A stretch of 63,423 nt of DNA, counting the filler, from Reclinomonas americana ATCC 50394 (Eukaryota), in assembly GCA_048213135.1 (NCBI GenBank). It is 5 parts of 3 records of this genome, joined end to end, with 100 filler letters (N's around TTAATTAATTAA, not from the genome) between each part and the next. Parts side by side here need not be neighbours in the genome. Positions count along the whole stretch, not along the records: positions 21,877 to 44,227 come from PS015404.1; 4 more parts are not named here. The stretch is one strand, 5' to 3'. Shown piece by piece: positions 22,442-26,989 of the stretch. Position numbers and translations under genes: made by a program. Every line of letters starts with the position of its first letter. Position 1 is the stretch's first letter. Below the pieces are notes generated by a model, which was not told the origin of the DNA, ran no database searches, and worked only from the letters and a program-made list of their open reading frames with translations.

Positions 22442-25400
22442 ATGGTACATGTTTCTCCTCACGCACACGCACGCGCTCTCTTCCACACACGCACTCACTT
22501 TCCTGTCTGCGCGCAGTCATTCTCTGTCCACTTTTGCCCGGCAGATGGCACCTCACGCATCACGGTGCCCCGAGTCACTGGCGACATGCGATTGTGTGAC
22601 CTTGTGCAGCGCGGCTTGCAGTTGCTGGGCGTCGCTGCGGATGCGCGTGTGCGTGTGCGCTCGGATGTGGCGCTGCTATCGTCAGACGCATCCACACTGC
22701 GAGAACTAGGCATTTCGGCGGAGACCACATTGACGGTGGATGTCGAGGGCAGCGGGTGCGTTGTTGCGTGTGTGTCTGATAGAATAGAGAGATGTGCGTC
22801 TCATCTGTGTCTATGTGTGCGAGAAGAGCGAACAACTACATGTTGCTGCAAGATGCATTGGGCATTGTCAGAGACGCACTGGCCGCTCGACTCCGCGCTG
22901 CGTTGCCTGCGTTCTGTCGCGCGCATCCCACCATGCGCGTCGATGAAGCGTGGTGCTGCAAGACTGTCCGAGATATTTCTGCGCGGTTGGTGTGGTGTTG
23001 CTCTTCTCCATCCTCCTCATTATCAATGATGTATGCTCTCGCAGCTACAAACCCGGTGGCAATCACGTGTTCTTGCATCAAGAGCAGCGTGATTATGTAC
23101 TCACCTGGAAGGCAGCATTCGATGCGGATCCCGCCAGCACACCGCCGTGCCCGCCGTTTGACTTGGCTGCGCTGTGCGCGATCCTCGTGAACGGAGGAAA
23201 TGTGGAGGTTGACGGAAGCTGCCATTTCCTCCTTGCTTCGGAGGTGGAGGTCTGTGTGCTGCTCTCTTGTTCGAAACGCTTGTCACATTAATATTGTTCA
23301 TCATGTGTGCAGCGCCGGTCTGTGGAGTCGCTTCGCGATATTCGCAACGCTGTTGTTGGCCATCGCCTCTTTGGCCAGGCTGTTGCTGCTGTGGATGAAG
23401 TCGCCGACCTGCTCGGCGATGGCGTTGTTGAGGGGCGTTTGGTGACCGCCATCTCATCACTCCAACTTGGTGATGCCCCGCTCGCCCACTTTCGTGCGTT
23501 GCTGGACGACATTCGCACAAGTGAGTCTCATGAATCCCGCTGAGTGTCTCATCGTTCACATTCTTAAAAACTTCTCCGCGCAGGACGACATCATATTTCT
23601 GACGTAGAGTTCACCGCATTGCTTGCGAGCTACAGTGAGCGCGAATCATCAGCATTCCGCGAGGACGAGAACCTGCGCAAGACCTTGCAGATGTACGTGC
23701 CGCTGACGACAAAAGTTGGTGGCGTGTCGCGTGATCTGCTGTCGGAGGTCGATGCATTTGTTGCCGACGACAACCGCGCCCGCGTGATGTTGTTCCTCGG
23801 AAACAGTGGAGCTGGCAAGACAACAGCTGTGACTGTGATGGCTGATCATGCGTGGCGAGCATATCGAGAGGGGCGCAGTCGACGGTTGCCACTGCGTGTG
23901 CCATTGTCGGCGTTGCGTGACGTGGAGCACTGCATGCTGGAGGAAGTGTTGCCATCCACGTGGCCAGAGGCGGCAGTACAGCGCATCAAGCAGATGCCGC
24001 TGTTGCTACTGTTGGATGGGTATGATGAGCTGTACCGAGAGATCAACCTGATGGACGCGGCGCAGGTTTGTTCCTGTCTCTTCAATTCTTTGTTGCTCAT
24101 GAGCCAACTTGCTTACTGATAATTATGTTCGCACAGCTTCGAGGATGTGCGGATGTCAAAGTGATCGTGACGTGCCGTTCTGATTACGCTGCTGGGATGG
24201 GTTCGGGTGGGACCGACTACCGTCGCTTCTTTGTCCCCACAGACGGCAGTGGGCTTCTGGACTTGCGGTTGTTGGTGGCACGCACTGTGGAGCCATTCAA
24301 CGACGCTCAGATTGATTACTATCTCCAGCACTTTGTCACGCATCAGTCGACGGAATGGAAGACTGTGGACGATTATCGTCTCGCGCTGCGCGGCATGCAT
24401 GGAGTGCAATCGTTGATCACGAATCCATTCATGCTGTCTGTCGTGGTGCAAGTGCTGCCGCAATTGGTGGCGAGTGGCGTACAGCGACCGACTCGGCGTG
24501 ATGTGTTTGACCGATTCATACGGCAGTGGATTGAGAGGGAACAGGAGAGACAGGCACGTCTCGGTGCGGAACGTGTGCCAAGTGAGGAGATATGCCTCGC
24601 TTTCTGTGAGGGGCTGGCGAGGTTGATGCACGAGAAGAATCTCGTGCGAGCCGTGTGTGATAGCCGAGCGAGTGGCGAGGATGCGAGTGAATTCGGTGGC
24701 GCGCCGTCTAGTGCTGTGCAAGCGCTACACTTTGACAAGTTCCTCGGTCACAAGAACCAACATGTGCGAGTGTGCTGTCCAATTGTGCGACGGTATGGGA
24801 CGACGCAGTGGGGATTCGTACATCTGTCGTTGCTGGAGCACTGTGTGGCACGGCATGCGTTTGCGTGGGAGACGTGGGATGAGGGGAGAAGATTGACGGT
24901 GCAAGATGTGCAGCATCATGTGCTGGGAGTGCGATTGCTGAACGACAGACCATCGTTGGTGGGGCAGATGGCCGAGGTTGTGCGACGGTCTCCTCGATTG
25001 CAAGCGAGATTGTGGGAGGTGATTGAGTTGTCACGGGAGGTGGATGAGGAGCGATTGGTTACGGCAGCGGCGAATGCAGCGACGGTATTGTGTGTGGCAC
25101 AAGTGTCGTTCAGTGGGCGAGATCTGTCGGGTGTGCGAGTGAGGGGTGCGGATTTGAGGGGTGCGGTGATGCACAGGACGGTGTGGAGGGGAGCAGATAT
25201 GCGAGGGGTGAATGTGTGCATGGCGTATGCAAGGGAGGCGGATTTCAGAGGGGCGGACGTGACGGATGTAAAATGGCCTAGGAAGCGGATGAGGGGGCAC
25301 ACCAGTGCGGTGTATGCAGTGGCAGTGACATCCGATGGCCAGCACATTGTGAGTGGCAGTTGGGACGAGACTGTACGGGTGTGGTCGATGGCAAGTGGCG

Positions 25401-26989
25401 AGGAGGTGCGCCGACTGGAAGGCCACACGTTCACTGTGTCTGCAGTGGCACTAACACCTGATGGTCAGCATATTGTGAGTGGCAGTGGAGACAAGACTAT
25501 ACGGGTGTGGTCGATGGCAAGTGGCGAGGAGGTACGCCGACTGAAAGGCCACACGAGAGAGGTGCTTGCAGTGGCAGTGACACTTGATGGCCAGCACATT
25601 GTGAGTGGCAGTGATGACAAGACTGTACGGGTGTGGTCAATGGCAAGTGGTGAGAACGTGCGCCGACTGAGAGGCCACACGACAGAAGTGGCTGCAGTGG
25701 CAGTGACACCCGATGACCAGCACATTGTGAGTGGCAGTTCGGACAAGACAGTGCGAGTGTGGTCAATGCTCAGTGGCGAGGAGGTTCGCCGACTGGAAGG
25801 CCACACGGGCTGGGTGCGGGCAGTGACAGTGACACCCGATGGGCAGCACATTGTGAGTGGCAGTCGAGACAGTGTAAGAGTGTGGTCGCTGGCAAATGGC
25901 GAGGAGGTGCGTCGACTGGAAGGCCATACAAGTGTGGTGTGTGCAGTGGCAGTGACACCGGATGGCCAGCATATTGTGAGCGGCAGTTGGGACAGGACTA
26001 TACGGGTGTGGTCGCTGGCAGGTGGCGAGGAAGTGCGCCGACTGGAAGGCCACACGAGCGAGGTATCTGCAGTGACGGTAACACCCGATGGGCAGCACAT
26101 TGTGAGCGGCAGTTGGGACAAGACTGTGCGACTGTGGTCTATGGTGTATGGCGAGGGCGTGCTGCCTGTGTTGGGACACGTGGACTACGTAACGTCTGTT
26201 GCCATCAGTCCCGATGGGCAGCACATTGCGAGTGGTAGTAGGGACAAGACTGTGCGGGTGTGGTCGGTGGCAAGTGGCGAAGCGGTGCGACGGCTAGAGG
26301 GACACGGGGAGGCGGTAATATGTATTGCTTTCACCCCTGATGGCCAACACATTGTGAGTGGCAGTGGGGATTGGACTGTACGGGTGTGGTCGGTGGCAAG
26401 TGGAGAGGAGGTGTGCCGACTGAATGGTCACACGCATGTGGTGTCTGCAGTGGCAGTGACTCCCGATGGCCAGCACATCGTGAGTGGCAGTGCGGACGAT
26501 ACTGTACGGATGTGGTCGGTGGCAAGTGGCGAAGAGAAGCGCCGACTGGGAGGCCACACGAGTTGGGTGTCTGCAGTGGCAGTGACACCCGACGGACTGC
26601 ACGTTGTGAGTGGCAGTTATGACAATACTGTGCGAGTATGGTCGGTTGTAAGTGGCGAGGAAGTGCGGCGGCTGAAAGGACACGCTGATAGGGTGTCTAC
26701 AGTGGCAGTGACACCCGATGGTCAGCATATTGTGAGTGGCAGTGAGGATAAGACTGTACGGGTGTGGTCGGTGGCGACTGGCAAAGAAGTGCGTCGGAGT
26801 ACAACTTCTTATCTCGATAGCTTGTTGCCGAGCACTTCAGCAGCCGCTGGTATCACTTGTCGAGCGGATGGCAACACTGTTCGTATTTATCAGCGGCATG
26901 GGCGGGGCGAATTATTGGTGCGAGTTCTTGGCCCTCACGATCCTGACTTCACCGATGCGAAGCACAGCAAGAACTGTACCCTCCTCTGA
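22442..26989 (+). CDS. NLR-like STAND protein: Ubl - HEPN-like - NACHT - pentapeptide - 12xWD40 - CaaX
   Basis: Exons 22442-22444, 22517-22755, 22827-~22952, 23045-23249, 23313-23520, 23608-24065 and 24137-26989 join in frame at GT-AG sites. Motifs are TLRELGISAETTLTV (Ubl), FDLAALCAIL and LRDIRNAVVGH (HEPN), GNSGAGKT (Walker A), LLLLLDGYDE (Walker B), VIVTCR, NPFML, FVHLSLLEH, DLSGVRVRGADLRGA, and GH...W WD40 repeats. Confidence 0.9.
25290..26800 (+). repeat. Twelve 126-nt coding WD40 repeats with high internal nucleotide identity
   Basis: Consensus xGHTxxVxAVAVTPDGQHIVSGSxDxTVRVWSxASGEEVRRL. Repeat 5 is one codon short. Confidence 0.97.

Follow-up and report, generated by a model that had tools for sequence, protein, structure and literature searches.

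Described systems with similar architecture

Proteins that join a NACHT domain to WD40, TPR or ANK repeats are described from Capsaspora, choanoflagellates, Phytophthora, Thalassiosira, Toxoplasma and others in the sections of PMC3879445 that deal with these architectures. Here we report on a gene of this kind, on the plus strand at 22442-26989 of a 63,423-nucleotide stretch of DNA (filler included) from the eukaryote Reclinomonas americana ATCC 50394 (GenBank assembly GCA_048213135.1); the whole of that stretch is called the window below. The predicted protein has an N-terminal head followed by a NACHT domain, pentapeptide repeats and a WD40 array, and we consider it rather likely to be an NLR-like STAND receptor of about 1400 amino acids, leaving the effector type of its head unassigned. 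A reading made from the DNA alone (the sequence-only reading) had gone further and assigned the head to the HEPN ribonucleases (RNases).

The hallmarks of HEPN domains, as set out in the relevant parts of Anantharaman et al. 2013 (PMC3710099), are a four-helix up-down bundle with an insert between helices 2 and 3, and an Rx4-6H motif that runs from the end of helix 3 into the next loop, usually with N, D or H after the R. In Table 1 of that paper, NACHT is one of the domains to which the DZIP3/hRUL138 HEPN is fused, and the family is given as expanded in a lineage-specific way in Nematostella, oyster and Capsaspora. For the pearl oyster, the passages of PMC9646362 on this family report more than 50 NACHT proteins with an N-terminal DZIP3-like HEPN, in which N after the R is typical, and NACHT proteins with TPR or WD40 tails. 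As far as these parts of the two papers describe them (PMC9646362; PMC3710099), the DZIP3/hRUL138-like HEPN-NACHT proteins of bivalves and cnidarians (PF18738 + PF05729) resemble the protein in the window in having a helical head before the NACHT domain and an R-N-x(4-6)-H string, and some of them carry WD40, TPR or LRR tails, where ours carries a WD40 tail. They differ in that the domain in the window has no PF18738 match, and in that pentapeptide repeats stand between NACHT and WD40 here.

In bacteria, the parts of Kibby et al. (bioRxiv 10.1101/2022.07.19.500537) on domain composition list HEPN among the enzymatic heads of NACHT proteins and pentapeptide or beta-propeller repeats among their sensors. 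Like the protein in the window, those with RNase heads place an effector head, NACHT and a repeat sensor in one polypeptide; they are prokaryotic and intron-less, whereas the head in the window is spread over several predicted exons, none of which had a PADLOC match. Fungal NWD/HET-E proteins are alike in that NACHT is followed by closely similar WD40 repeats that vary at few positions, according to the portion of PMC4986451 on these repeats, where the criterion for such repeats is an identity of more than 85% over at least 100 amino acids, compared with a mean of 67% here. The fungal heads also differ (HET and others), and the searches run showed no relationship in sequence.

RNase L, the functional analogy drawn in the sequence-only reading, is a sensor-gated RNase that is activated by ligand-induced dimerisation. 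It differs from the present protein in having no STAND NTPase, an ankyrin sensor that binds 2',5'-oligoadenylate (2-5A) and a pseudokinase, and we saw no sequence similarity between the two. The family overview in PMC3710099 counts RNase L among the HEPN proteins (KEN).

HEPN heads on NACHT are already on record for animals, for bacteria and, in the form of a DZIP3-HEPN expansion, for Capsaspora, judging by the portions of these publications that treat them (PMC3710099; PMC9646362; Kibby et al.). The sequence-only reading presented its arrangement as new for a unicellular eukaryote, which was overstated: HEPN-NACHT expansions that include the unicellular Capsaspora, oyster HEPN-NACHT(-WD40) proteins and protist NACHT-WD40 proteins are all in print. 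By keyword in open-access text, we found no description of the exact head-NACHT-pentapeptide-WD40 arrangement in a protist.

The NACHT-pentapeptide-WD40 core

The interval 22442-26989 can be read as a single gene of six exons, whose joined coding sequence of 4221 nucleotides (nt) encodes 1406 amino acids and runs without an internal stop to a TGA at 26987-26989. It has the look of a eukaryotic nuclear gene, spliced and with short introns, and the NACHT-pentapeptide-WD40 gene is probably real and intact. Its features, with exon boundaries as predicted, are as follows.

22442-22755, plus strand: exon 1 of the model, first coding exon, with the ATG at 22442 as modelled
22544-22755 (approximately), plus strand: alpha/beta piece of 71 amino acids inside exon 1, called ubiquitin-like (Ubl) in the sequence-only reading
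22756-22826, plus strand: intron 1, predicted, 71 nt, GT..AG, with an AAG acceptor
22827-22985, plus strand: model exon 2 (exon 3 of the sequence-only reading), first helices of the orphan helical domain, ANNYMLLQDALGIVRDALAARLRAAL...
22986-23044, plus strand: intron 2, 59 nt, GT..AG
23045-23249, plus strand: model exon 3 (exon 4 of the sequence-only reading), middle of the helical domain, FLHQEQRDYV..., PPFDLAALCAILVN
23250-23312, plus strand: intron 3, 63 nt, with an in-frame TAA at 23289-23291; other acceptors at 23327 and 23378
23313-23520, plus strand: model exon 4 (exon 5 of the sequence-only reading), final part of the helical domain
23343-23363, plus strand: RNAVVGH motif, R237-N238-A-V-V-G-H243, which fits Rx4-6H with a polar residue after the R
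23521-23583, plus strand: intron 4, 63 nt, with in-frame stops inside
23584-24065, plus strand: model exon 5, pre-NACHT linker and N-terminal half of NACHT
23799-23825, plus strand: Walker A, GNSGAGKTT, residues 368-376, read from the sequence, intact
24000-24029, plus strand: Walker B, LLLLLDGYDE, residues 435-444, read from the sequence, intact
24066-24136, plus strand: intron 5, 71 nt, the single join with comparative support
24137-26989, plus strand: last exon (6), C-terminal half of NACHT, helical and winged-helix parts, pentapeptide repeats, WD40 array and a 60-amino-acid tail
25103-25207, plus strand: pentapeptide repeats, best Pfam stretch, PF00805, expect value (E) 5e-7, 29.6 bits against a cut-off of 20.2
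25309-26793, plus strand: WD40 array of 12 repeats, Pfam WD40 in 12 stretches, E 9.4e-139

Pfam searches on single-exon translations found the NACHT, pentapeptide and WD40 modules, the first two with scores above the curated cut-offs. The NACHT domain (PF05729) was found in 23586-24065 with an E of 3.5e-9 and 37.2 bits against a cut-off of 26.7, and both nucleotide-binding motifs have the expected form (GxxxxGK[ST] for Walker A and hhhhDGxDE for Walker B). PADLOC models gave only weak matches to the same segment, DolB (0.0051) and PDC-M16A (0.0096), and no PADLOC model matched the C-terminal part of NACHT. The pentapeptide region also matches an MfpA-type model in NCBIfam (2.3e-5).

The WD40 array was resolved by TRF (Tandem Repeats Finder) as a period of 126 nt (42 amino acids) in 11.8 copies with 76% matches. 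Its 12 units are 42 amino acids long, except for the fifth, which has 41, and their pairwise identity averages 67% (range 38-81%). Variation is focused on columns 4, 8, 9, 11, 27 and 29 of the 42-amino-acid unit, a pattern that, like that of fungal NWD genes, suggests repeats evolving in concert while certain positions diversify. The protein has the three parts of an NLR-like STAND protein, namely an N-terminal head, NACHT and C-terminal repeats, the head being connected to the rest through predicted exon joins.

A relative with a kinase in place of the head

Residues 1-330 of the last exon found one related protein among 7055 candidates (E 1.2e-36), a JGI record of 1610 amino acids that we call P0001. 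It is collinear with the window protein through the pre-NACHT linker, NACHT, the helical part, the pentapeptide repeats, the WD40 repeats and the C-terminal tail, and the two align at 4e-72 with 27% identity over 948 columns and 36% over 161. The stretch PLLLLLDGYDE at Walker B is the same in both, and in the searches run the NACHT domain of the window protein was closer to P0001 than to any animal protein. A longer word-based search with the 23584-24065 peptide yielded no related protein among 4837 candidates. Scans of metagenome contigs, of genome contigs (185,579 species genomes) and of viral contigs gave no confirmed relative of the NACHT-pentapeptide-WD40 chassis. Within the window there is no second NACHT or head-like copy; tblastn with the spliced head plus NACHT gave, outside the gene, only matches with E of at least 0.83.

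The head of P0001 is a protein kinase (PK_Tyr_Ser-Thr, 2.6e-51, residues 79-315), located before NACHT, in contrast to the alpha/beta piece and helical domain of the window protein. Because the kinase occupies the same position, the approximately 300 residues before the linker can be regarded as an exchangeable effector slot, and the placement of our head in that slot is supported by this comparison of sequences. The receptor frame of the sequence-only reading, with a head in the effector slot, a NACHT domain with intact Walker A and B motifs and a repeat sensor, is borne out to this extent. P0001 differs further in that its WD40 repeats are much less alike one another than those of the window protein, and in that its reading frame runs unbroken on a 9-kb contig, in contrast to the five introns of the window gene. 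We also noted a tandem duplication of about 110 amino acids in the NACHT-associated helical region of P0001 (residues ~566-680 and 676-790, seen as two high-scoring segment pairs and by eye), which could be real or an assembly artefact of the 9-kb contig.

Gene model and splicing

The six-exon model is probable, its joins having been placed by the logic of the sequence. All five introns are GT..AG introns of 59-71 nt with a GC content of 0.39-0.48, below that of the exons and compared with 0.55 for the window, and all share G|GTNNGT donors, including intron 5, which is supported by homology. At the 24065/24137 join the protein runs continuously through DGYDE...DVKVIVTCR as it does in P0001, and this is the only join with such comparative support. 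The intron at 23250-23312, with 63 nt, matches the size class of the remaining introns.

Upstream of NACHT, at least three introns are required between the first exon and the NACHT exon to avoid stops, and more than one arrangement achieves this. Allowing introns of 40-150 nt, we counted 4284 GT-AG paths with three introns; the RNAVVGH motif is in frame in 3024 of these. When GTNNGT donors are imposed, 315 paths with up to four introns are left; donors 22986 and 23250 are used in every one of them, and the motif is kept in 210. Among these constrained paths the motif is dropped only through acceptor 23378, while acceptors 23312 and 23327 keep it.

We also scored frames by codon-usage log-odds, trained on 1404 codons from the NACHT and WD40 exons and two Pfam-supported genes of the window. 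The proposed frame ranks first of six for the alpha/beta piece (0.256, 22544-22754) and for each of the head exons 22827-22985 (0.080), 23045-23249 (0.064) and 23313-23520 (0.049). The scores of these three exons (0.05-0.08) are below those of the in-frame NACHT pieces, whose mean of 0.289 comes from within the training set.

The N-terminal head

In the N-terminal region of about 300 amino acids, the small alpha/beta piece is followed by a domain of some 190 amino acids (residues ~105-300) that is all-helical. The peptides given for the helical domain in the sequence-only reading are the translations of 22827-22985, 23045-23249 and 23313-23520. They are rich in Ala, Leu, Val and Arg, contain nine Pro/Gly-free stretches of 11-26 amino acids, and by eye look like regular amphipathic helices.

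The Ubl label for the 71-amino-acid piece is unsupported, though it may still apply. The piece matched no Pfam family and no PDB sequence at E of 10 or less. An AlphaFold2 model with a pLDDT (predicted local distance difference test) of 69.5 has the order E-H-E-H-E (E, strand; H, helix), and this model drew nothing from Foldseek at E of 0.001 or less; the weaker matches included a Ddi1 UBL (rank 7, E 0.63) and a MoaD-related protein (rank 19, E 0.83).

The motif on which the RNase assignment turned is present exactly as claimed. The codons CGC AAC GCT GTT GTT GGC CAT at 23343-23363 encode R-N-A-V-V-G-H, and the string has the Rx4-6H form with N, D or H after the R (R237-N238-AVVG-H243), a form that does not discriminate. 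In an AlphaFold2 model of 23313-23520 alone (pLDDT 59.8), helices span residues 2-15, 21-35, 40-48 and 54-68, with the R (9) and N (10) near the end of the helix 2-15 and the H (17) in the loop 16-20. This placement is consistent with the helix-end position of the HEPN motif, in what is a low-confidence model of a fragment; neither this model nor that of the alpha/beta piece is of a quality that allows a fold to be assigned.

Possible functions of the head

One explanation, which we would put somewhat short of probable, is that the head has no nuclease function and serves instead as an adaptor or a membrane-active module, all-alpha and specific to its lineage, in the style of a death-fold, a HeLo or other four-helix bundle, or a 'NACHT N-terminal helical' (NNH) domain, and that RNAVVGH is a chance string. 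The length of about 190 amino acids counts against the first of these forms, being long for a single death-fold. The Ala/Leu/Val/Arg-rich composition and the long Pro/Gly-free stretches speak for such a module, no nuclease family was detected by Pfam, PADLOC or NCBIfam with the exon fragments, and the motif has the chance frequency given below. All-helical NNH modules are, moreover, listed on NACHT proteins in the domain survey portion of Kibby et al. However, the Pfam models for HeLo, Goodbye, death-fold and NNH domains were not matched either, and there is no positive evidence for any specific alternative.

Another explanation, which we hold as tentative, is that residues ~105-300 form an active DZIP3/hRUL138-like HEPN RNase, with WD40 sensing leading to NACHT oligomerisation, HEPN dimerisation and then RNA cleavage or cell death. 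A divergent, metal-independent RNase of HEPN type acting through R237, N238 and H243 is the single most likely activity that we can name for the head, and even so a doubtful one. The basis of this guess consists entirely of the short motif, its apparent helix-end placement and a helix pattern, in which a hydrophobic 'FD...L..L' helix precedes the motif in an order and spacing that we take to resemble those of DZIP3-like domains. In its favour, comparison with P0001 puts the domain in the effector slot. The domain is also N-terminal to NACHT, as in the more than 50 pearl-oyster proteins reported in the cited part of PMC9646362, and the N after the R is typical of HEPN in the corresponding parts of both that paper and PMC3710099. 

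For the receptor as a whole, with the effector type of its head left unassigned, established knowledge of STAND and NLR proteins suggests a mechanism in which the variable face of the WD40 propellers would bind a ligand, binding would free NACHT for nucleotide-dependent oligomerisation, and oligomerisation would cluster the N-terminal helical domain and so produce a response by proximity-induced activation. That the head would then act as an RNase activated by induced proximity is a guess.

A number of points weigh against the receptor reading and against the HEPN step. The steps of ligand binding, oligomerisation and activation are taken by analogy from STAND and NLR proteins. The motif on its own is within chance: when residues 105-300 were shuffled 20,000 times, 27% of the shuffled sequences held one or more strings of the form R[NDH]x3-5H, and the 1406 amino acids contain 18 Rx4-6H strings, three of them within residues 105-300 and ten of them the R[RL]xxGH of WD40 repeats. 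Rx4-6H alone is no evidence for HEPN. The helix-end placement is weak because the pLDDT is 59.8, and the Gly before the His would yield that placement regardless.

Database searches with the head likewise gave nothing in favour of HEPN. The queries were single-exon peptides and a read-through of 23045-23520, and the HMMER filters drop most matches above an E of about 0.1; since the queries are fragments of a domain that spans three exons in two frames, these negatives are low-powered. None of the three head exons matched a HEPN family in Pfam, PADLOC or NCBIfam at E of 10 or less, so the DZIP3-like RNase of the sequence-only reading found no backing there, and 23313-23520 drew only DUF5635 (E 0.11) and a methionyl aminopeptidase model (E 0.17). 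The intron at 23250-23312 is 63 nt long and in frame, and we therefore read through it into 23313-23520 with X at the stop; in Pfam this read-through of 23045-23520 also gave no HEPN, its match being PHD_pln (E 0.056) on residues encoded by the intron. PF18738, the DZIP3/hRUL138-like HEPN, was not matched by any exon or by the read-through, provided that it is in the Pfam copy searched. Against PDB sequences, the best E for exons 22827-22985, 23045-23249 and 23313-23520 was 0.15, and no match was a HEPN.

Homologues of the head were equally scarce. A phmmer search of 23313-23520 against 1.84 billion representatives gave two matches at E of 0.001 or less. We rejected both as artefacts, being unrelated proteins with long internal repeats. 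A longer word-based search with the same exon found no related protein among 842 candidates, and the ESM Atlas gave no usable match for 23313-23520 or 23045-23249. Relatives of the head, by which conservation of the R and H could be judged, were not found in the searches run. With the domain examined as fragments, the evidence on HEPN is weak in both directions.

The remaining points of this kind concern the reading frame. Other ways of splicing are available, and one in three of the constrained paths loses the motif. The margin of the proposed frame in 23313-23520 is 0.049 against 0.042, and with a smaller training set it is not first. Over 22442-22543 the codons favour another frame (0.275 against 0.101), and the start codon is uncertain because these first 34 codons after ATG 22442 score higher in the other frame; translation may in fact begin at the in-frame ATG at 22586, or within an upstream exon. 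As modelled, the 34 codons following ATG 22442 read MVHVSPHAHARALFHTRTHF....

The weakest explanation, that the head exons are mis-modelled or the gene decayed, with an mRNA that begins closer to the NACHT exon or is spliced at other sites and a 'domain' that is partly or wholly non-coding, is improbable: it can draw on the thousands of stop-free GT-AG paths, the several frames open over 23100-23610 in this GC-rich DNA, the marginal score of 23313-23520, the better score of the first 34 codons in another frame and the low head-exon scores next to those of the NACHT pieces (which were in the training set), but the proposed frame is first of six in every head exon, the five introns share donors and a 59-71 nt size with one that homology confirms, each of the 315 constrained paths needs both donor 22986 and donor 23250, and the exon peptides look by eye like amphipathic helices.

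The rest of the window

Translations of the open reading frames (ORFs) of the window drew a Pfam family in four of 29 cases, three of them above the curated cut-off.

42965-44275, minus strand: RNase_PH ORF, E 6.4e-10
45926-46912, plus strand: Brix ORF, E 7e-27
49811-51151, minus strand: TauE/SafE ORF, E 9.8e-20

All three are of ordinary eukaryotic kinds, with housekeeping or transport roles. Scanning the window for Rfam families and tRNAs gave no matches. On either side of the receptor gene, at 21080-21700 and 28000-28200, are long CA/TG-rich low-complexity tracts that translate as THSLTHSL..., and these adjoin N runs at 21777-21876 and 27585-27994. In total the window contains 4242 N in 21 runs (for example 10735-11231, 35566-36264, 38441-39268 and 48703-49473), and several of its longest stop-to-stop ORFs are open only because they cross such runs.

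Significance

As it stands, the gene adds one more NACHT-WD40 receptor with an orphan N-terminal domain to those for which protist cases are known from the pertinent sections of PMC3879445. That its head is a HEPN RNase beyond the reach of current profiles, on the NACHT-pentapeptide-WD40 chassis of a microbial eukaryote, we rate as unlikely. If the head were a HEPN RNase, the protein would be a sensor-gated RNase receptor in one polypeptide from a non-animal eukaryote. It would represent an RNase-armed NLR built by head swapping outside the animals, separately from the molluscan and cnidarian DZIP3-HEPN-NACHT proteins, and together with P0001 it would show a kinase exchanged for an RNase on one NACHT-pentapeptide-WD40 chassis, which would bear on how NLR-like immunity is assembled in eukaryotes and bacteria.

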